Position numbers and translations under genes: made by a program. The notes beneath the pieces are model-generated. The model had not been told where the DNA came from. It saw nothing but the letters and a program-made list of their open reading frames with translations, and ran no database searches. Below, in pieces: positions 1 to 7,337 of a DNA stretch of 7,337 nt. Each line of letters starts with the position of its first letter. The first letter of the stretch is position 1. The stretch comes from a virus (Duplodnaviria; Heunggongvirae; Uroviricota; Caudoviricetes): the IMG/VR virus record IMGVR_UViG_2671180430_000004; one strand, written 5' to 3'.

Positions 1-25
1 GGGAAAAATATCATCAGATGGCTGC

Positions 26-379
26 TTAAAAAAAGAACAAATGGTAGTGTCCGCTATTGCCAGTACACCTCAATTGCTCTGCGGCTTCGCTCAGAGCTGG
101 CGTATGTTCCCGGCCTACTGATTCACACAGGTAATCAACGAAACCGGACACCAGTTTTCGTTCGCGAGGCGTGATCGCCCCACCGACCGGAGTCCAGTAA
201 TCGAAACCCAGTTGCAGGAGTTTGAAAAAACGCTTGTGGAATGCGTAGTTACACACACGCTTAAAGTCTGCGTGTATCCACTCACCTATTTTGATTTGAT
301 GCAGAAAATCGCAACTCTCCGGCGTCGCCGGGAGAAGTAATCCGGAAGAGGTTTGTTTGACCAGTTGTATATGTGCCAT
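26..379 (-). CDS. hypothetical protein, 117 aa, second gene of a two-gene operon
   Basis: Track ORF 26..421 starts at a TTG (421-419). An in-frame ATG at 379-377 is preceded by GGAG with a 7-nt spacer, giving MAHIQLVKQ... Stop TAA at 28-26. No family recognised. Confidence 0.55.
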   Translation of the reverse strand: MAHIQLVKQTSSGLLLPATPESCDFLHQIKIGEWIHADFKRVCNYAFHKRFFKLLQLGFDYWTPVGGAITPRERKLVSGFVDYLCESVGREHTPALSEAAEQLRCTGNSGHYHLFFF

Positions 380-417
380 CGGCTTTCTCCGGTGGCACGG
401 TGTTACACAGCAGGAGT

Positions 418-705
418 TCAATCCTGCTCAAGATTGTAGATGAGTTTATTCTTCAGCAAAAGCAGAAAACCAGCCTTAAAACCAATCTCTTTCAAAACCC
501 GTAATGATGTGACAAATTCGTCCTCACGCAAAATAAAACCGTCCGTCAGAAGTCCATTACAAAAATAAAATAACACAGCACCGCTCTTCCTTTGTTGAGA
601 TTGCAAACATCTAATGCGGCAATGGCTGACAATCGCTCCATTCTCAACGCGCACAGCATAGAGGCCATTTTCACTAAAAATTTCACGCAATTCTTCGATT
701 TTCAT
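418..705 (-). CDS. hypothetical protein, 95 aa, AT-rich coding sequence; sits where rem lies after hokD in the K-12 Qin prophage (synteny only)
   Basis: ATG at 705-703 preceded by GGAAGGA with an 8-nt spacer. Stop TGA at 420-418. First gene after the hok terminator. Product identity not established. Confidence 0.55.
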   Translation of the reverse strand: MKIEELREIFSENGLYAVRVENGAIVSHCRIRCLQSQQRKSGAVLFYFCNGLLTDGFILREDEFVTSLRVLKEIGFKAGFLLLLKNKLIYNLEQD

Positions 706-786
706 CTTCAGAATCCTTCCAGATAAATAGCTCTCCCCTGTTCGGGGTCCATCCCTCTTCTCCCTGCGCGCTACTTAAGTGAGTCG

Positions 787-814
787 ATTCTATCTGCGAA
801 GGTGCGCGAATCAA
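787..814 (-). promoter_or_regulatory. candidate sigma70 promoter for the 95-aa/117-aa operon
   Basis: Minus strand TTGATT (814-809), 16-nt spacer, TAGAAT (792-787), about 80 nt upstream of the ATG at 705 and just downstream of the hok terminator. Confidence 0.3.
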
Positions 815-830
815 ATTCACCGGAAATAAA

Positions 831-877
831 CAACAAAAAACCCGCCGAAACGCTGAGAGATCACAGCGATGGGCGGG
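831..877 (-). terminator. rho-independent terminator downstream of hok
   Basis: CCCGCC (841-846) pairs with GGCGGG (872-877), with an inner CGCTG/CAGCG stem (851-855 / 864-868). On the minus-strand transcript the hairpin is followed by UUUUUUGUUGUUUAUUU (plus 840-824). Confidence 0.5.
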
Positions 878-954
878 TTAAGTGCGGGTGCGTTGAGGAT
901 GCCTGACACATCAGAGGTGGGCGGGGATGGGATCAGCTCCCCGCCCGGTCACTC

Positions 955-1110
955 TTACTTCCTGGATTCGTAGTCTACGAAGACAGCGACCTCCGTCTGG
1001 CCGGTTCGGATTCGTACCTCACAGAGGTCTTTCCTCGTTACCAGTGCCGTCACTATGACGGTTAAACAGATGACGATCAGGGCGATTAACATCGCCTTTT
1101 GCTGCTTCAT
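955..1110 (-). CDS. hokD: Hok/Gef family type I toxin, 51 aa, closest in my memory to HokD/RelF
   Basis: From the ATG at 1110-1108 the product is MKQQKAMLIALIVICLTVIVTALVTRKDLCEVRIRTGQTEVAVFVDYESRK, matching recalled HokD/RelF except for the last residues. AAGGAG lies 9 nt upstream. Stop TAA at 957-955. The track ORF 955..1167 is an in-frame TTG extension into the leader. Confidence 0.85.
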   Translation of the reverse strand: MKQQKAMLIALIVICLTVIVTALVTRKDLCEVRIRTGQTEVAVFVDYESRK

Positions 1111-1286
1111 AGCCTGCTTCTCCTTGCCTTTCGGCATGTAAGAGGCTAACCTACATGTGCAAAGCATGAAATTGGCCTCAGATTAATGTTAAGCGTCTTG
1201 CCGGACGCGTAATGTTAACTGGGGCTTTTCTCTATCTGCCTTTTGGTGTTCATGCCTGAAGCAGATAGCCTCAAGCACCCGCAGTC

Positions 1287-1316
1287 ATTCTACTTACCTC
1301 GCCAATATGAAATCAA
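1287..1316 (-). promoter_or_regulatory. candidate hok mRNA promoter
   Basis: Minus strand TTGATT (1316-1311), 18-nt spacer, TAGAAT (1292-1287). Predicts a leader of about 170 nt before the hok ATG, as is typical of hok mRNAs. Confidence 0.3.
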
Positions 1317-1337
1317 TCAGAAAGGTGCCCCATAAAA

Positions 1338-2024
1338 TCACTCCTTCTCTTCTTTACCGTAGTGGAGTTGACCAATTTTGATAAGAGGGCGTCCCTGAGA
1401 TTTGCGGTGTAGATTGGTATCGCGCAGAGAATACACACAGCCACAATATTCCTGCTGATAGAATTTTTCGCGCTTGCTGATTTCAATCATACGGGACGAG
1501 CCGCCCTGCTTGCGCCAGTTATAATCCCAGTACACCATGCCCGGATAATGCGCGACGGCTCGCCGCCCACAGTCGTTAACCTGCTGCATATTTTTCCAGC
1601 GTGAAATGCCCAGTGAACTGCTGATCACACTGAAACCATTTTCAGCGGCGTACAGCGCTGTCCGCTCAAAACGCATGTCAAAACACATGGTGCAACGGAT
1701 CCCTCGTTCGGGCTCCCATTCCATTCCTTTGGCTCGTTCAAACCAGTTGTCTGTGTCGTAATCAGCATCAATAAACGGCACGCCGTGTTGTTCAGCAAAG
1801 CGAATATTCTCATCCTTACGAATTAAATACTCTTTCTGAGGATGAATGTTCGGGTTGTAGAAAAAGATGGTGTAGTCGATTCCCGAGGCCTGAAGCGCCT
1901 CCATCACCTCACCGGAACATGGAGCACAGCAAGAGTGCAGTAGTAGTTTGTTTGCCCCGTTTGGGAGCTCCAATTTGGGCCGTTTGAAATCAGCAACTGT
2001 CATAAATATGTTTATTGGGGTCAT
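1338..2024 (-). CDS. queH: QueH-like protein (DUF208, epoxyqueuosine reductase family)
   Basis: 228-aa ORF with N-terminal [19 protein letters not shown], a central CTMC and a C-terminal YCGC, which I recall as the conserved cysteine pattern of QueH/DUF208. ATG at 2024 (alternative ATG at 2003); neither has a clear Shine-Dalgarno. Stop TGA at 1340-1338. Confidence 0.6.
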
Positions 2025-2171
2025 AAAAATATCAAAGAGTGTAGCATTAGAACGGGGCTATCGGAAACAGATGTGTGACTGCTCCCCGCCCTTTCGGGTG
2101 GTCTCCTGATGATTTGAGGGTGCAGAAATCCCTCCGGTTAAGGATTAAATTTTTAACAGTGCTAAATTTAA

Positions 2172-2510
2172 TTATTCAGTTCTGGATTTTGTCGCCCTGC
2201 GTATCCGCGCTTTCGCGTTACGCTCAATCTGTATCAGCTTTTCTATATTTCTCCGCCTTTCCTGTTCCTCCTGGCGCAATAGCCTTACATCATCTGCCAG
2301 TCTGGTTTCTCTTTTTGCCACAGAGAGCATCCAGTCAAACGGCTCCACAACCGCACCGCAGATTTTACAGCGGACCTGACGCTCTTTTTCGTCAACCCGG
2401 ACAGAGGCGTGATGGCAATATGGTCTTTCCGATGGTTCATAAAGAAAATTAACCTGATTACGAGGGTCATCCTCTTTTACCGGAAATAAAACGATATTGC
2501 TTAACTCATC
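2172..2510 (-). pseudogene. 5'-truncated paralogous copy of the zinc-ribbon gene at 3097..3453
   Basis: Ungapped alignment to 3097..3437 at an offset of 925 bp. The frame is open for 112 codons (DELSNIVLFPVKEDDPRNQ...RRATKSRTE, stop TAA 2174-2172) but has no start. The codon homologous to Glu6 of the intact copy is TAA (2513-2511), which is also the stop of the upstream 123-aa ORF. Confidence 0.55.
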
Positions 2511-2512
2511 TT
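2172..2512. repeat. direct repeat copy A, about 341 bp
   Basis: About 94-95% identical by eye to 3097..3437 with no indels, roughly 18 substitutions and a 9-bp divergent patch near the 3' end. Confidence 0.85.
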
Positions 2513-2882
2513 AAATTGACCCAATCAGATATCCAGCGTCCTCCGCCGGAAATTGAGCAATAAGCTCACCTGTTCGTTCAGCGAGCTCGCGTGCATCACA
2601 TGGAATGTCTTCTATGTAAACAGTGTGCGGTACTGCCCTCATTTTAATGCTGCTTTTTTGCTTTTTTGCAAGGGTATCCCAATATGCAGCTACGATGCTG
2701 AAGCAGTATGAGCGGGCATGCATCAACCTTGACTGCCCGGTTTTGTAATTGCCCGCATAACCTTTGGCCATGGCTTTACAAGTTTGATATCTTTCCAGAT
2801 TAGAAAACTCATTATCTGTAAAAAAATCAAAATGTTGCACATTCATAATGTAAAATCCTAATGTATCAAACATGCGGGCCAT
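2511..2882 (-). CDS. hypothetical protein, 123 aa, cargo ORF between the repeat copies
   Basis: ATG at 2882-2880 giving MARMFDTLGFYIMNVQHF... Stop TAA at 2513-2511. No obvious Shine-Dalgarno at the first ATG; an alternative ATG (MNVQ, about 2846) has AGGA upstream. The N-terminal third is encoded by markedly AT-rich DNA. No family recognised. Confidence 0.5.
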   Translation of the reverse strand: MARMFDTLGFYIMNVQHFDFFTDNEFSNLERYQTCKAMAKGYAGNYKTGQSRLMHARSYCFSIVAAYWDTLAKKQKSSIKMRAVPHTVYIEDIPCDARELAERTGELIAQFPAEDAGYLIGSI

Positions 2883-3096
2883 AACATCTCATGGTGGCGC
2901 ATAGCAAACTGGCCCGAAGAATATCACGCACCAAGTCGATCTCATAACCCGTTATGACAATAAATCTTTGTAGCTGAACTCACTTGGTGATTTGTCAATC
3001 ATTCCTGGCCTCCAGTTCGTCCTGAATCTCTTTATCGAGTTCACCGTATTTGTTAGTCCTCATCACTCACGACTTGACTTCCAGAAATAACCTTGA

Positions 3097-3437
3097 TTAT
3101 TCGGGGCTATATTTTGTCACCCTGCGTATCCGCGCTTTCGCATTACGCTCAATCTGGATTAGCTTTTCTATATTTTTTCGCCTTTCCCGCTCCTCCTGGC
3201 GCAAGAGCCTTACATCATCTGCCAGTCTGGTTTCTCTTTTCGCCACAGAGAGCATCCAGTCAAATGGCTCCACAACTGCACCGCAAATTTTACAGCGGAC
3301 CTGACGCTCTTTTTCGTCAACCCGGACAGAAGCGTGATGGCAATATGGTCTTTCCGATGGCTCATAAAGAAAATTAACCTGATTACGAGGGTTATCCTCT
3401 TTTACCGGAAATAAAACAATATTGCTTAACTCATCTT
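3097..3437. repeat. direct repeat copy B, about 341 bp
   Basis: Homologous to 2172..2512; this copy carries the intact gene. Confidence 0.85.
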
Positions 3438-3453
3438 CTGGTTTTATTTCCAT
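3097..3453 (-). CDS. small Cys/His zinc-ribbon-like protein, 118 aa
   Basis: ATG at 3453-3451 preceded by AAGGAGAGGAG; the track start is an upstream GTG at 3510. Stop TAA at 3099-3097. Motif C-H-H...C-K-I-C-G. Differences from the paralogous copy are about 13 synonymous to 4 nonsynonymous in this frame, supporting minus-strand coding. Confidence 0.7.
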   Translation of the reverse strand: MEIKPEDELSNIVLFPVKEDNPRNQVNFLYEPSERPYCHHASVRVDEKERQVRCKICGAVVEPFDWMLSVAKRETRLADDVRLLRQEERERRKNIEKLIQIERNAKARIRRVTKYSPE

Positions 3454-3510
3454 GCTCCTCTCCTTTGATGCGAATGCCAGCGGTAATTGAAGCCTGATAG
3501 CTAATTTCAC

Positions 3511-3933
3511 TCACAGTACCGCCTCCTGAAAATCACCCTGATAGAAAGCCGGTACACGCTGCATAACTTCACTCTTCCGGCACTCGCGACAGATTATGTT
3601 CTGATGTCTGTCGTAGCGGCGTATTTCTCCGTCCGGTAATGACCAGATAAGGTCCGGATCAACCACAGATGGTTTCTTCAGCTTTGCCCTCGAGAGTTTT
3701 TTGCGGGCGTTTTGCCAGTCCTTACGAGCCTGTTCAGACGGGAATAACCCGTAGCCAGAGTTGTATACATCCCCACTGGCAACCAGCTCTCTGGCGAGAA
3801 CGCTTATTAAATATCTTGTCGCCCCGGTTTTAGCTTCCAGTTGTCGTAACGTCTCGCGCCCACTCTGGCGTACGAGTTCAACAACCTGCCCCTTAATTTT
3901 TTCCCGCTCTTCCTGTGTAAATACTTTTGCCAT
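3511..3933 (-). CDS. Ren-like protein (tentative), 140 aa
   Basis: ATG at 3933-3931 (MAKVFTQ...); the track start is a TTG at 3948. Stop TGA at 3513-3511. The C-terminal ICRECRKSEVMQRV resembles the C-terminus of lambda Ren as I recall it (FKECRQSAAMKRV), and the gene sits after the P-analog as ren does after P. Identity is tentative. Confidence 0.55.
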   Translation of the reverse strand: MAKVFTQEEREKIKGQVVELVRQSGRETLRQLEAKTGATRYLISVLARELVASGDVYNSGYGLFPSEQARKDWQNARKKLSRAKLKKPSVVDPDLIWSLPDGEIRRYDRHQNIICRECRKSEVMQRVPAFYQGDFQEAVL

Positions 3934-3948
3934 AAGCGCCCCCGGCAA

Positions 3949-4674
3949 TCACTTTTCCGACACAATACGACCGGAGGAATCGACAATCTGTCGAACAATA
4001 TCCCGGTGCTTGTTCAGCTCCCGCAACGCGGCGCAGACACGCTCCCACTTCTGGACATGACTTTTCGCCCGACGCAGTTCGCGGTTTGCCATATGCAGCG
4101 ATGGTAAAACCAGGTCATCCGCTTGCGTTTCGGTGAACGATGGCAACGACTGCACAATGTCCGCCACAGTTTCTGTTTTAATTTCTTCCTGTGTTGCAGC
4201 TTCCTGTACCGGTAACGCAACACCTGCTGGCTGAGGAAAGACTTTACCATCCGTTTCCGCTATGGATGCGGCTTTCGGCTCTGCCGGTAAATCAGCGCCC
4301 GGTATGCAGTACCGAAATTTACCGCCCTGATTCACGCGAATCAGACGCCCTTTGCTGATTGCCATGGCCAGCGATGAATTCGCCCGGCGGGAGGTAATCC
4401 CGAACATCAGTGCCAGCTCATCCGCCGTTTGTGGGCCATGTTGTTCAATCGCCTCAGTCAGCATTTGCGCTGTCACTTTCGGTACCGGTGACACTGGTTC
4501 ACTTTCACCAGCCTGAATCAGCCACCACATCGAACCCTTGTTATCCGCTTCACCACGGCGCTTCAGTTTCCACAGTTCGTTGACCGCATCTTCACGGCTG
4601 ATTCCAAGGCGGGACGCCACCACATGTGAAGAGGCTCTTTTCAGTGCTTTCAGTGCGTCAAATACAGTTTCCAT
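3949..4674 (-). CDS. hypothetical protein with two tandem winged-helix-like domains, 241 aa
   Basis: ATG at 4674-4672 preceded by GGAGG with a 7-nt spacer; the track start is a TTG at 4692. Stop TGA at 3951-3949. Two HTH-like segments ([19 protein letters not shown] and [24 protein letters not shown]) separated from a basic C-terminal region. Confidence 0.7.
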
Positions 4675-4695
4675 TAAAACATCCTCCAACAAAAA

Positions 4696-5442
4696 TTACT
4701 TCACAACTCCCGGAAAGCTGACATTTGAACGCCAGCTATCCCAGTTAAACGTCACCCACCGACAACCGTTCATGGTCATGCGGTCCATAATCCTCTCACC
4801 AAGAAGCGTGCTCATTGCGGCATGATTCAGGTTTGTTAACATCCCGACACTGCACAGTGATGCTGTCCGGCGATCAATTATCTGGTGCAATACCACCTGC
4901 TCGTTTTTCGTCTCCCGCTGAATGCCTATTTCATCCAGGACCAGCAAATCAACCCCGCAAAGCTCCTGTAAAAATTTTTCACCGGATTTGCCGTTGTCGT
5001 AGCTGTCATGCAACACGCTCATGACATCAGACTCGGTGACGATAATCACGCTGCGCCCCTTCGCCATCAGCCGGTTACCCATCGCCGCTGCAAGGTGATT
5101 TTTCCCGGTGCCGGTTTTACCGCTGAACACAAAATTCGTGCACCCGGTCATCAGTTCGTCAGCTATGGATTTGGCCTGGCTCAGCGCGTATTTTTGCCCG
5201 TCGTTCTGCACCTGATAATTCGCAAACGAGCATTTGCTGTGCAGAGGCTGGATGCCCGAACGATTCAGGATTTTTTCCACCCGCAACTGGCGATTCTGGC
5301 GGTTAATCTCCTCGCTGCGTTTTCGTCCTTCAGCAAGTTGCCATTCCCGCCACTCCTCCACCGTCCGGTACGGTGGAACCGCCCCCTGTGGTGCAAGTCT
5401 GTGAATACGTTCAAGAACCCCGGCTGCCGCAATGTTTTTCAT
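4696..5442 (-). CDS. DnaC-like AAA+ helicase loader (phage P analog, Rac YdaV-like)
   Basis: 248 aa. Walker A FSGKTGTGKNHLAAA with the DnaC-type GKN, Walker B LLVLDEIG. ATG at 5442-5440 lies 6 nt after the stop of the upstream initiator gene. Stop TAA at 4698-4696. Confidence 0.85.
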   Translation of the reverse strand: MKNIAAAGVLERIHRLAPQGAVPPYRTVEEWREWQLAEGRKRSEEINRQNRQLRVEKILNRSGIQPLHSKCSFANYQVQNDGQKYALSQAKSIADELMTGCTNFVFSGKTGTGKNHLAAAMGNRLMAKGRSVIIVTESDVMSVLHDSYDNGKSGEKFLQELCGVDLLVLDEIGIQRETKNEQVVLHQIIDRRTASLCSVGMLTNLNHAAMSTLLGERIMDRMTMNGCRWVTFNWDSWRSNVSFPGVVK

Positions 5443-5448
5443 GCCACA

Positions 5449-6513
5449 TCACCCCCTGAATCCCGGCGGAATTTCGGTATCCGGTTCAGAAATATGATTC
5501 ACACAACGCTGGTTGTTCGTGCCGCTTACCGGGAGCAACCAGGGGTTTTCAAAATTCCGGTCCGGCCCAAAAAACGTCGTCGCTCGCTGAACAAATTCCG
5601 TTCCCGCTTTCCCGGTCGCCGCCAGGTATCTCGCGTAACGCCTCACACCATCCAGCATGGTCTCTGGTGGCACCCCCTCGCGCAATCTGGCCTTCCAGGC
5701 ACTGAATGCGGATTTCTTCGGGTTTGCCCCGGCACGCAACGGGTATTCCCGCCAGACCTGTTCGAACACATCCGGATAATCCACTCGTCCCACAGGCTGC
5801 CCGGTGTTTTCCGGGGCTACCCGATCGGCTTCCCGCTGAATGGCGGAATCGGCTTCAGGCTGCTGCAGTTGGAGTGATTGCTCCGGCCTTGCGGTCATCA
5901 CCTGCTGCACAGCGCCCGAATCGGCTTTCAGCGCATACGCTGAATCGGCTTCCGGTGTCGAGCCTGCTGGCTGACCAGGATTGACGGTCTGAACATCCCC
6001 TGCCTGGTTCGTGGCGTTTTTTACGCCATGGACCATAGTGTTTTGATCTTCTTTATCTGTATCTTTATCTGTATCTGTCGTGACTCGTCGTGACATGTGC
6101 GTGACATTTCGTGACGCGCCGTGACAATCGCCATTTTGTTCCCGCTTTCTTTCCCTCTCTCGCTGCGCCCTCTTGCGCTCTGCAGGAGATTTTGCGGTTT
6201 GCGAAATATTGCCGTTGTCCTCTTTAAGCACCTGGCGTTTTTCCCATCCAGTGATTAAATCACCATCAAGTACCCGCCCCTGCATCGTCTGCAAAATTGA
6301 ATCAATTACCTCTTCTGTCACGTCGAGCGCACTTGCCAAATCTTCTGTCGTGACATCAATGTGACCTCGCGTGACATTTCGTGACGCGCTCACCAGGAGG
6401 TGGATATACACTGCCATCACTGTTGCAATTGGCTGCCCTGACACCCTGGCAATTGTTCGCCACTTAGGGTCATTTGGCATGTCATGCCATAATCTGAGCC
6501 AGGCGTTAGCCAT
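5449..6513 (-). CDS. phage replication initiation protein (O-like replisome organiser)
   Basis: ATG at 6513-6511; the track start is a GTG at 6519. The N-terminal domain (WLRLWHDMPNDPKWRTIARVSGQ...) resembles phage replisome-organiser/DnaD-like N-domains, followed by a charged low-complexity linker and a conserved C-terminal domain. It lies directly upstream of the DnaC-like gene and contains iteron arrays. Confidence 0.8.
   Translation of the reverse strand: MANAWLRLWHDMPNDPKWRTIARVSGQPIATVMAVYIHLLVSASRNVTRGHIDVTTEDLASALDVTEEVIDSILQTMQGRVLDGDLITGWEKRQVLKEDNGNISQTAKSPAERKRAQRERERKREQNGDCHGASRNVTHMSRRVTTDTDKDTDKEDQNTMVHGVKNATNQAGDVQTVNPGQPAGSTPEADSAYALKADSGAVQQVMTARPEQSLQLQQPEADSAIQREADRVAPENTGQPVGRVDYPDVFEQVWREYPLRAGANPKKSAFSAWKARLREGVPPETMLDGVRRYARYLAATGKAGTEFVQRATTFFGPDRNFENPWLLPVSGTNNQRCVNHISEPDTEIPPGFRG
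6035..6125. repeat. putative origin core: AT-rich tract plus five phased CGTGAC iterons
   Basis: GTGAC at 6080, 6090, 6101, 6111 and 6121 (spacing 10, 11, 10, 10 bp), immediately 3' of the AT-rich tract ATCTTCTTTATCTGTATCTTTATCTGTATCTGT (about 6046-6078). Lies in the linker-coding part of the initiator gene. Confidence 0.55.
6317..6389. repeat. second iteron array: four phased GTGAC plus one inverted copy
   Basis: GTGAC at 6350, 6361, 6371 and 6381 (spacing 11, 10, 10 bp) and GTCACG at 6317-6322. The 21-bp block GCGTGACATTTCGTGACGCGC at 6369-6389 is identical to 6099-6119. Confidence 0.55.
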
Positions 6514-6584
6514 ACTCACCTCTTCTGATACCGAATCTTTTTACTCACGAGTTGCCGGGAGCGATTCGATATGGCTATTGTCAG

Positions 6585-7010
6585 TCAATGTACTGCCACA
6601 GCATTTCCTGCCGGGCCACCACGGTTCATCTGATTGAAACCGGCGATTGCCACTGCGACAAAATCATCAGCGTCTCTCACCAGTCGTTCATGCGTCTCCA
6701 CCAGTTCCCGAAAATAAGCTGAACTGTGGCTGCGCATTCGAGCCACCAGCGGAGGTGGCATTGCCCTTTCGATCGCAGGTAACAACGCCTGAATTTTTTC
6801 AACAGCGTCAGGGGTGTCTTTATCCAGCCAACGGAAAATCTTTTGGGTGTTGAGATAAAGCGTGTTGTGCTTGCTGTCGTTATGCAGAACCGGAAACGTC
6901 ATTCCCAGTTCGAAATAAACCCTGGTTATTTCAGCTGCCGGAACTTTTTCACCGTCCGGATGCGCCCAGGCTTTCATCGCCATGCGGATGTGTTCATGCT
7001 TGATTTTCAT
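6585..7010 (-). CDS. YdaT-family protein (CII-like regulator)
   Basis: 141 aa starting MKIKHEHI and ending AVH, matching my recollection of Rac YdaT in length and termini. The ATG overlaps the stop of the upstream gene as ATGA (7010-7007). Confidence 0.65.
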   Translation of the reverse strand: MKIKHEHIRMAMKAWAHPDGEKVPAAEITRVYFELGMTFPVLHNDSKHNTLYLNTQKIFRWLDKDTPDAVEKIQALLPAIERAMPPPLVARMRSHSSAYFRELVETHERLVRDADDFVAVAIAGFNQMNRGGPAGNAVAVH

Positions 7011-7270
7011 GAATCAACCCCCGCCGATGGTTGTGTGTTAGCCTGAAACTCAGCAGGCAAGCCGTCAGTTGGGTTGGGGTAGGTTTTACTGTCAATCTCA
7101 TGTGGGGTCACCACCCATCCCGTTGCTTCACACCAACGTAATATTTTTTCTCCTGTAAGTTTTGCACGCCCCGTTATAACGTGGCTGACCATCCCTTGGG
7201 ATGCGCCAACAATCTCAGCAAATGAACTCTGGGTTATATGAAAATGATGCAAATATTCTCCAAGATTCAT
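7007..7270 (-). CDS. Cro-like HTH regulator (YdaS family)
   Basis: ATG at 7270-7268 preceded by AGGG; the track start is a TTG at 7297. HTH segment QSSFAEIVGASQGMVSHVITGRAKLTGEKILRW. First gene after an AT-rich promoter region at the window edge. Confidence 0.65.
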   Translation of the reverse strand: MNLGEYLHHFHITQSSFAEIVGASQGMVSHVITGRAKLTGEKILRWCEATGWVVTPHEIDSKTYPNPTDGLPAEFQANTQPSAGVDS

Positions 7271-7304
7271 AATCCGCCCTATGTGATGTGTTACCAATGC
7301 ATAA

Positions 7305-7333
7305 TTAATAGCACTGTTATTTTTAAAAGTAAA
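7305..7333 (-). promoter_or_regulatory. candidate PR-like early-right promoter and operator region
   Basis: Minus strand TTTACT (7333-7328), 17-nt spacer, TATTAA (7310-7305), in AT-rich sequence with short palindromes (ATTAAT, TTTAAA). A divergent repressor gene would lie beyond the window edge. Confidence 0.3.
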
Positions 7334-7337
7334 TAGT

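Follow-up and report, generated by a model that had tools for sequence, protein, structure and literature searches.

The mosaic joints of lambdoid phages have two accepted sources, illegitimate and homeologous recombination (PMC2327257, PMC3945230), and in Shigella, where IS activity and rearrangement rates are high, IS-driven rearrangement and pseudogenisation are the rule (PMC7373316, PMC8072062). The locus described here shares features with both. As in Hendrix-type lambdoid mosaics, parentage switches sharply, within one nucleotide, between two early/nin-region modules; the partners have a flanking gene in common (Zn-ribbon, DUF977) that is about 93% identical; and an R-M moron lies at the module boundary, directly after a stop codon. 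Unlike most fixed mosaic joints, which fall at gene borders, this one interrupts two coding sequences; what remains is two apparently dead fragments and a partial gene duplication. Unlike a phage-by-phage exchange, it involves partners that are both IS-riddled defective remnants, so that the event, if real, would be a chromosomal rearrangement. The signs of Shigella IS decay are also present, in that IS600 cuts the DUF1367 gene, IS1 ends one of the remnants, and IS elements occupy several sites of the Zn-ribbon gene in other strains; the joint itself, however, is without IS sequence. Compared with type II R-M systems of the BsuBI/PstI family, the locus retains a fragment from such a methyltransferase, but only residues 1-123, with neither the catalytic domain nor the endonuclease gene.

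The window, by which we mean the whole stretch of 7,337 nucleotides that was analysed, consists of two blocks, here called X and Y after the prophage remnants from which they derive, that meet at a blunt joint at 2512/2513. The identity of every part, of both parental blocks and of the joint, as read from alignments with related loci, is almost certain. The features are as follows.

1-2512, minus strand: Block X, distal part of prophage remnant X, with Zn-ribbon copy A (codons 6-118), QueH, hok/sok, Rem, a truncated DUF1367 gene and the end of IS600.
2172-2512, minus strand: Zn-ribbon copy A, truncated, codons 6/7-118 plus stop, with no start codon and no RBS.
2511-2513, minus strand: TAA stop codon made by the junction, from a three-way alignment of the window with both parental types.
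2513-2882, minus strand: methyltransferase 5' fragment, codons 1-123 of 610 (the "cargo ORF" of the earlier note), from the match to WP_000113425.1 and PADLOC.
2883-3096, no strand: native intergenic region of 214 bp between Zn-ribbon copy B and the methyltransferase gene (the "spacer").
3097-3453, minus strand: Zn-ribbon copy B, intact, 118 aa, PHROG 1621, an uncharacterised prophage protein.
2513-7337, minus strand: Block Y, proximal part of prophage remnant Y, with cro, YdaT, an O-like organiser, a DnaC-like protein, DUF1627, DUF977, Zn-ribbon copy B and the methyltransferase 5' end.

Each block is found, nearly or fully identical, in its own set of genomes. Positions 1-2512 match three loci (L022, L024 and L025) at 2510/2512 positions (99.92%), the IS600 end at 1-72 included; positions 73-2286 are 100% identical to S. 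sonnei locus L031, and E. coli FDAARGOS_944 (L003) matches 73-2512 at 99.8% identity. IS600 cuts the DUF1367 gene at 72/73, and the full remnant X reads DUF977, Zn-ribbon, QueH, hok, Rem, DUF1367' and IS600. The earlier note had proposed a search for the empty site in related prophages, and it is there: a single Zn-ribbon gene lies between QueH and DUF977 in L003, L017 and L022-L025. Block X also carries a type I toxin-antitoxin pair, which is a neighbour and lies outside the joint finding: the Hok peptide in the window matches Pfam HOK_GEF (E = 9.8e-23), and sok RNA (Rfam RF01794) is found at 1105-1280 on the minus strand with 117 bits against a gathering score of 59.

On the other side, positions 2512-7337 are identical to L007 and L010 at 4826/4826 positions (100.000%), and Block Y is 99.98% identical to L006, L009, L011 and L014; among the carriers of remnant Y is at least one record of Shigella sonnei. 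Block Y is a lambdoid early/replication region, as its colinear cro-like, YdaT, replisome organiser, DnaC-like loader, DUF1627 and DUF977 genes show on the basis of Pfam and PHROG matches and the RefSeq annotation of near-identical loci. Beyond Zn-ribbon copy B, all six of these loci continue into a full methyltransferase gene, an endonuclease gene, IS1 and a host gene of the mannitol-dehydrogenase family. Intact loci have a single Zn-ribbon gene followed by a 610-aa methyltransferase and a 360-aa BsuBI/PstI endonuclease, and no repeat. About two dozen Shigella-type genomes, as well as E. coli FDAARGOS_943 and VL7S7, have an intact module 3' of one Zn-ribbon gene, and what comes next is ParE/ParD and DUF968 in E. 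coli but IS1 and a host gene in the Shigella type; a comparison of the methyltransferase-endonuclease module with the phage collection gave no match. The partner endonuclease matches Pfam BsuBI_PstI_RE_N and BsuBI_PstI_RE and PADLOC REase_II, and the window has nothing that aligns to it. The R-M system here is dead.

The open reading frame between the Zn-ribbon copies is the 5' 20% of an HsdM-family/type II methyltransferase gene of a BsuBI/PstI-family R-M module. With its stop codon it spans 2511-2882 on the minus strand; its product is residues 1-123 of WP_000113425.1 (610 aa) at 100% protein identity, and matches PADLOC MTase_II PDLC03338 over profile positions 2-116 of 604 (E = 5.8e-36). 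This identity was revealed only through PADLOC and comparison with related loci, since the 123-aa product alone gives no match to Pfam, PHROG or NCBIfam. In the full methyltransferase the catalytic domains, N6_Mtase (residues 120-310) and Eco57I (249-337), begin at about residue 120, and the open reading frame of the window ends at residue 123, short of an N6-adenine/AdoMet domain. Its stop codon is a hybrid, with the T from methyltransferase codon 124 (TAT), a middle A common to both parents and the last A from Zn-ribbon codon 6 (GAA); the one base shared at the joint is T2512 on the plus strand, a 1-nt microhomology. The earlier note had located the end of homology correctly, at this stop codon, where GAA (Glu6) reads TAA in copy A, and had given the 214-bp spacer and the 123-aa frame between the repeats their right extents. 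Its claim that the repeats bracket a cargo gene falls: the frame is a methyltransferase stub closed by the joint, and the spacer, which lies inside the 4826-nt identical stretch, is also found in E. coli FDAARGOS_943 and VL7S7. A scan of 2883-3096 for a consensus sigma-70 promoter found none on the gene strand. No functional gene has been inserted in the "cargo" region, which is a rearrangement scar of an ordinary kind or else an assembly chimera.

The two Zn-ribbon copies differ in what they can encode. Copy B has a C-x-H...C-x2-C metal site and a conserved C-terminal helix; it matches phrog_1621 over residues 1-115 (E = 1.1e-54) and falls under the cutoff of Pfam Zn_Ribbon_TF (21.6 vs 29 bits). 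In 10 homologues, with identities as low as 44%, the four residues C38, H40, C54 and C57 never vary. Copy A keeps all four ligands but has no start from which to translate them; its first in-frame start, a GTG, would give only a 58-aa C-terminal piece. Neither this start-less gene nor the methyltransferase stub is expected to function. Copy B matches the single-copy gene that adjoins the R-M module in L007 and L010 at 100% identity, and copy A is at least 99.4% identical to the single-copy genes adjoining QueH in L018 and L022-L025. G2400 and T2436 were considered as private changes near the joint and rejected: this allele, which differs from the commonest X allele, is also carried by L018 (99.4% identical to copy A), L028 (99.7%) and the X copy of L034, which is identical to copy A.

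The repeat itself, 2172-2512 against 3097-3437, is 341 bp long at an offset of 925 without indels, as had been claimed, with 319/341 positions identical (93.5%); it is far beyond chance. Its longest identical runs are 44, 35 and 31 bp. Homology stops at 2512/2513 on one side, and on the other a weak similarity continues for ~9 bp beyond the stop codons, up to 2163/3088. The earlier note counted about 18 differences, some 13 synonymous and 4 nonsynonymous; the total is in fact 22, the 13 and 4 hold for codons 7-114 in the minus frame, and three further nonsynonymous codons in the C-terminal tail (115-117) had been missed. By the Nei-Gojobori method dS is 0.24 and dN 0.027, for a dN/dS of 0.11, or 0.076 without the tail, and the synonymous excess in the minus frame is significant by a binomial test (p = 4e-6). 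The bias is absent from four of the other five frames and partial in one, on the plus strand (11 synonymous vs 8 nonsynonymous codons). These values, and the match of each copy to single-copy genes elsewhere, bear out the proposal that both copies evolved as functional, diverged alleles before being juxtaposed, and that this is no recent duplication. Copies A and B are alleles that diverged under purifying selection in different prophages.

Our preferred reading, to which we assign a probability of roughly 55%, is that the joint between two Shigella/E. coli lambdoid prophage remnants arose in vivo by illegitimate recombination. Remnants X and Y would have co-occurred in an IS-rich Shigella-type chromosome, and IS600 would have cut the DUF1367 gene of X before the joint formed. 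A non-homologous join with 1 nt shared would then have connected codon 123/124 of the Y methyltransferase gene to codon 6 of the X Zn-ribbon gene, by deletion, inversion or transfer. Lost relative to Y are methyltransferase codons 124-610 and the endonuclease gene, and lost relative to X are Zn-ribbon codons 1-5 and everything upstream. The outcome would be a methyltransferase stub closed by a hybrid TAA, a start-less Zn-ribbon piece and an accidental 341-bp diverged direct repeat, between the copies of which later RecA- or Red-type recombination could delete 925 bp to leave one intact hybrid Zn-ribbon gene. Such repeat-mediated loss of the methyltransferase fragment is plausible. X and Y pieces do occur together in one S. 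sonnei isolate assembly (L030). Counted against an in vivo origin is that a plain deletion between separate X and Y loci might remove a large, possibly essential stretch. The joint has also not been found elsewhere: its 35-mer, TTGCTTAACTCATCTTAAATTGACCCAATCAGATA, has no match in GTDB species representatives, IMG/VR or JGI metagenomes, and a megablast of the 151-bp joint against 5,426 complete E. coli genomes gave none. A search for the reciprocal joint (..AAAACCAG-A-TACGGTAATG..) likewise gave no match, and no tandem precursor (Zn-ribbon B, methyltransferase, endonuclease, ..., Zn-ribbon A, QueH) was found among intact modules.

The absence of the joint from all of these collections would also be expected of an artefact, and the best-placed alternative, which we consider a real if doubtful possibility, is an assembly or scaffolding chimera. 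Here the isolate would hold ordinary X and Y remnants, and scaffolding or gap closing would have abutted two contigs, so that the tandem, or at least an IS1-free joint, is absent from the cell; in one variant, IS1 may lie at a methyltransferase deletion end and at codon 6 of a Zn-ribbon copy. The window does resemble a whole short-read contig, with one end 72 nt into IS600, while scaffold L030 starts 5 nt beyond the other, right end. L030 and L034, both draft scaffolds of S. sonnei, show tandem Zn-ribbon copies across single-N joins, and L030 has the block order of the window (Zn-ribbon B and methyltransferase 1-70, a single N, then Zn-ribbon A 43-118 and QueH) with different breakpoints. One such join produced an annotated fusion protein, P0069, which was considered as an independent natural methyltransferase::Zn-ribbon fusion and rejected because it spans the single N. 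Furthermore, the Zn-side breakpoint coincides with an IS1 boundary in L028, L033 and L034, which points to a branch point in the assembly graph or a missing IS1. Several features of the joint argue the other way. First, it contains no N and only 1 nt is shared, whereas graph assemblers need k-1 bases of overlap; a de Bruijn mis-join is further disfavoured because it would probably give a hybrid Zn-ribbon gene and not a duplication with a stub. SSPACE and GapFiller at default settings generally merge contigs only at overlaps of at least 10-15 nt. Second, no IS1 bases are present at the joint, though a contig that ends in a repeat usually includes k-1 bases of it, as happens with IS600 here. Third, the methyltransferase gene is unique sequence, and a contig break at codon 123 therefore needs a real lesion there. 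Finally, the allele of copy A differs from the commonest X allele yet matches a natural one.

The same IS1 coincidence can be read as the mark of the element itself. In one such account, IS1 ends made both breakpoints in vivo, by an adjacent deletion from the IS1 3' of the endonuclease gene into the methyltransferase gene and by an insertion at codon 6 of the Zn-ribbon gene; the flanks were then brought together by IS1-IS1 recombination, and the element was later excised exactly, or is still present in the cell but missing from the contig. IS1 routinely causes adjacent deletions and IS-IS inversions; its terminus abuts the identical Zn-ribbon nucleotide in all three of the loci named above, and in Shigella-type genomes Y ends in IS1 directly after the endonuclease gene. 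However, the window contains no IS1 bases (IS1 ends read GGTGATGCTGCC... or GGTAATGACTCC...), a search for a methyltransferase::IS1 junction or allele at codon 123 found none, and an IS that lacks flanking target duplications is rarely lost exactly. The coincidence could also arise by chance in roughly 3-5% of cases, given at least three IS boundaries (w2285, w2397 and w2512) in a 357-nt Zn-ribbon gene, to which further IS-truncated copies probably add more. We consider this account unlikely. A related suggestion, which builds on the exact coincidence of the Zn-side breakpoint with the IS1 terminus and to which we give a similarly low probability, is that the joint marks a break made by transposase at an IS1 end, from which resection would have removed IS1, the endonuclease gene and most of the methyltransferase gene before 1-nt microhomology end joining closed the gap. 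If true, the window would be a natural record of an IS1 excision-linked deletion that inactivated an R-M system in Shigella.

Capture of an intact cargo gene, or moron, between the Zn-ribbon copies, by target-duplicating insertion or by recombination, was the model of the earlier note. An open frame of 123 codons with its own upstream intergenic region and direct repeats on either side does invite it. It is nevertheless very improbable: the enclosed frame is one fifth of a 610-codon gene, has no catalytic domain and owes its stop codon to the joint; where the module is complete, the genome has one Zn-ribbon gene and no repeat; among 5.8 billion clustered proteins there is no stand-alone one of this form, and exact look-ups of 123-, 120- and 111-aa products found none on record. 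Nor are the repeats near-identical copies of one target, as 22 of 341 positions differ and two prophage lineages are represented. A recent tandem duplication of the Zn-ribbon gene with divergence in place would account for two copies in direct orientation 925 bp apart, and can be dismissed given their dS, their 99.4-100% identity to single-copy genes elsewhere and flanks from two different prophage lineages.

Whether made in the cell or in the assembly, the joint carries two warnings. A clean open reading frame between repeats with a convincing dN/dS can be a gene stub whose stop codon was made by a junction, and paralogous prophage remnants can give rise to scaffolding joins that enter protein databases as "fusion proteins", P0069 among them. 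The joining of prophage remnants end to end is an ordinary type of event, and an in vivo illegitimate joint would have little biological weight, as one more case of prophage remnant reshuffling and R-M module decay in IS-rich Shigella/E. coli. If the joint is real, the isolate would be without this R-M system at this locus, and its diverged repeat could collapse to a single hybrid Zn-ribbon gene.

The two gap-free 341-bp direct repeats described in the earlier note (2172–2512 and 3097–3437, offset 925) are identical at 319 of 341 positions in the window, the longest identical runs being 44, 35 and 31 bp; the 22 differing bases replace the roughly 18 counted there. The spacer and ORF placed between the repeats are also found.

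3097–3453, minus strand: copy B, the intact Zn-ribbon gene, 118 codons
2883–3096: 214-bp stretch between the copies
2511–2882, minus strand: ORF of 123 codons between copies A and B

Copy A, the truncated gene, is in register with codons 6–118 on the minus strand and lacks codons 1–5; codon 6 is GAA in copy B and TAA in copy A. It has no start codon, and its earliest in-frame start gives a 58-aa tail only. The proposed count of 13 synonymous to 4 nonsynonymous codons holds within codons 7–114, with three more nonsynonymous codons at 115–117. Divergence is synonymous-biased as claimed (dS 0.24, dN 0.027, dN/dS 0.11, Nei-Gojobori), with a synonymous excess in the minus-strand gene frame (binomial p = 4e-6) that is absent in four of the five other frames and partial in one plus-strand frame (11 to 8). 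Each copy is 99.4–100% identical to single-copy genes of other genomes, which upholds the proposal that they evolved separately as alleles under selection and were juxtaposed later.

The view that the copies bracket a cargo gene fails, as the ORF is a stub. Alone, it has no match in Pfam, PHROG or NCBIfam; comparison of its sequence with related loci settles its identity as the 5’ fragment of a methyltransferase gene. E. coli FDAARGOS_943 and VL7S7 have this DNA at the start of a gene of 1833 bp whose 610-aa product is annotated “HsdM family class I SAM-dependent methyltransferase”; a BsuBI/PstI-family endonuclease gene comes next. The window ORF is exactly residues 1–123 of this methyltransferase and falls on positions 2–116 of the 604 in a type II MTase profile (PADLOC, E = 5.8e-36). 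In the full protein, the catalytic domains (N6_Mtase, Eco57I) start at about residue 120, and therefore the stub is without the catalytic part. The 214-bp “spacer” is the native intergenic region from the Zn-ribbon gene to the methyltransferase gene. The intact restriction-modification (R-M) module, a typical moron when complete, always lies downstream of a single Zn-ribbon gene, starting ~9 bp past the stop codon, and its GC content (0.43–0.44) is lower than that of the window (0.49). In the empty-site comparison, loci ordered QueH, Zn-ribbon, DUF977 were common. The stub is incomplete, a stand-alone 123-aa form is absent from the protein collection, and copy A lacks a start; both are therefore best interpreted as pseudogene fragments, and the R-M system at this site is dead. 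The window fails as a functional type II R-M system, having neither catalytic domain nor endonuclease, and as a cargo insertion with target duplication, the repeats being diverged alleles and the enclosed gene incomplete. Overall, the earlier observation is confirmed and its interpretation partly supported. The stub and the Zn-ribbon fragment (2511–2513 with 2172–2510) share one frame with only TAA between them (...GYLIGSI*DELSNIV...), and read-through of this stop codon would give a stub::Zn-ribbon fusion; with odds of 1 in 3, the shared frame is probably coincidental.

Judged by its matches to other loci, the window is a two-block chimera of prophage remnants X and Y. The left block (1–2512) is identical at 2510/2512 positions to three compared loci (L022, L024, L025), and 73–2286 is 100% identical to S. 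sonnei locus L031; the differences from L022, G2400 and T2436, are a natural allele also present in L018, L028 and L034. The right block (2512–7337) is identical at 4826/4826 positions to L007 and L010; for L006, L009, L011 and L014 the identity is 99.98%. Source genomes of remnant Y are 4.5–5.0 Mb, some of them complete, and have IS elements at these loci; a Shigella sonnei record carries a near-identical copy.

Remnant X: DnaC-like, DUF977, Zn-ribbon, QueH, hok, Rem, truncated DUF1367, IS600, integrase remnant, modCBA
Remnant Y: cro, YdaT, O-like organiser, DnaC-like, DUF1627, DUF977, Zn-ribbon, then methyltransferase (610 aa), endonuclease (360 aa), IS1, mannitol-dehydrogenase-family host gene
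1–72: IS600 terminus, with 100% identity to annotated copies of this element

The IS600 end cuts the DUF1367/NinB-like gene (73–421) after ~102 codons, at the same insertion site in L022, L024 and L025. In some complete genomes with remnant Y (L008, L009, L012; about 5572–7404) 1-nt indels interrupt the methyltransferase gene and the endonuclease gene is open, and in L011 (about 8080–8335) the endonuclease region is rearranged; the R-M module has either truly decayed at these loci or been altered by indel errors of long-read sequencing.

Parentage switches between X and Y at one nucleotide, at 2512/2513. Along the gene strand, the window has ...GGGTCAATTT-A-AGATGAGTTAAGC..., remnant Y ...TCAATTT-A-TACGGTAATG... 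and remnant X ...AAAACCAG-A-AGATGAG..., the single base common to both parents being a 1 nt microhomology at an otherwise non-homologous joint. In the TAA closing the ORF, methyltransferase codon TAT(124) and Zn-ribbon codon GAA(6) are fused into one hybrid codon, which is why the similarity of the copies stops precisely there, as had been noticed. That the joint lies inside two genes is mildly unusual. A third Zn-ribbon copy borders an IS1 terminus at exactly the nucleotide where copy A begins (AAGATGAG...; L028:722–812, L033:5847–5937, L034:5649–5739), and further IS boundaries fall in this gene at window positions 2285 (L031–L036) and 2397 (L026, L027); in Shigella, IS elements have targeted the Zn-ribbon gene repeatedly. 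The coincidence of the Zn-side breakpoint with an IS1 boundary is the only other mildly unusual point.

We put the probability that the joint formed in vivo at about 0.55. It would then be an illegitimate recombination event inside a Shigella-type chromosome, resulting in deletion, inversion or copy transfer and not in free-phage exchange. DUF1367 in X is already cut by IS600, a lineage-specific feature, and Y is the remnant that ends in IS1 immediately after the endonuclease gene, so a biological event would have involved two defective prophages. X and Y pieces occur together in one S. sonnei isolate assembly. An assembly product, including a real M(1–123), IS1, Zn(6–118) arrangement (methyltransferase stub, IS1, copy A) with IS1 dropped from the contig, is a serious possibility of lesser weight. 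In its favor, the joint was seen only in the window, none being found among 5,426 complete E. coli genomes, GTDB representatives, IMG/VR, JGI metagenomes and an exact-product index. The window also resembles a complete short-read contig, with one end 72 nt inside IS600 and the other 5 nt away from where S. sonnei scaffold L030 begins, and tandem Zn-ribbon arrangements occur across single Ns in L030 and L034. The order in L030, [ZnB, M(1–70)] N [ZnA(43–118), QueH], with ZnA and ZnB denoting copies A and B, matches the block order of the window, but the breakpoints differ. The match of the Zn-side breakpoint to the IS1 terminus (L028, L033, L034) is as expected for a branch point of the assembly graph, or for an IS1 that is, or formerly was, located at the joint. 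However, Ns, shared k-mers and IS1 bases are all absent from the joint; a break at codon 123 requires a real lesion, since the sequence of the methyltransferase gene is unique; and a graph mis-join via the Zn-ribbon repeat would create a hybrid gene, not a duplication. An improbable third route, in which IS1 ends made both breakpoints in vivo, overlaps both of these readings and takes no separate share of the total.

Single-N scaffold joins mix X and Y pieces in L030 (S. sonnei CXEN01000180.1; 3650, 6951, 7995) and L034 (FUDA01000173.1; 4045, 5275). Two products were rejected as artefacts of such joins: the database protein P0069 from L030, a 145-aa M(1–70)::Zn(43–118) “putative bacteriophage protein” in nr whose ORF spans a single N, and a 123-aa Zn::DUF977-tail ORF.

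By profile match, copy B is assigned to an uncharacterised prophage family (PHROG 1621, E = 1.1e-54); its score against Pfam Zn_Ribbon_TF is below cutoff. Homologues occur in prophages of Escherichia, Salmonella, Klebsiella, Serratia, Yersinia and Erwinia, across which C38, H40, C54, C57 and the C-terminal helix (LIQIERNAKARIR) are invariant. The window also carries the following features.

955–1280, minus strand: complete hok/sok type I toxin-antitoxin locus
955–1167, minus strand: Hok peptide (Pfam HOK_GEF, E = 1e-22)
1105–1280, minus strand: sok RNA (RF01794, 117 bits)
1338–2003, minus strand: QueH, prophage-borne epoxyqueuosine reductase (Pfam E = 1.9e-65)

The exact QueH protein is found in >5,000 blocks of the assembly collection. 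CGTGAC-rich direct repeats (6087–6125, 6347–6385) lie within the O-like replisome-organiser gene and may be origin iterons, as in lambda O.

If the joint formed in vivo, a later crossover between the 341-bp repeats could yield an intact hybrid Zn-ribbon gene; homeologous recombination at such divergence has been documented for lambda Red and, with lower efficiency, for RecABCD (PMC2327257). Nothing in the feature is outside known kinds: it is either a junction scar of an ordinary type or a chimera produced by assembly. It exemplifies the formation of lambdoid mosaic joints (PMC2327257, PMC3945230) and of the IS-era decay of Shigella prophages and defence genes (PMC7373316, PMC8072062).
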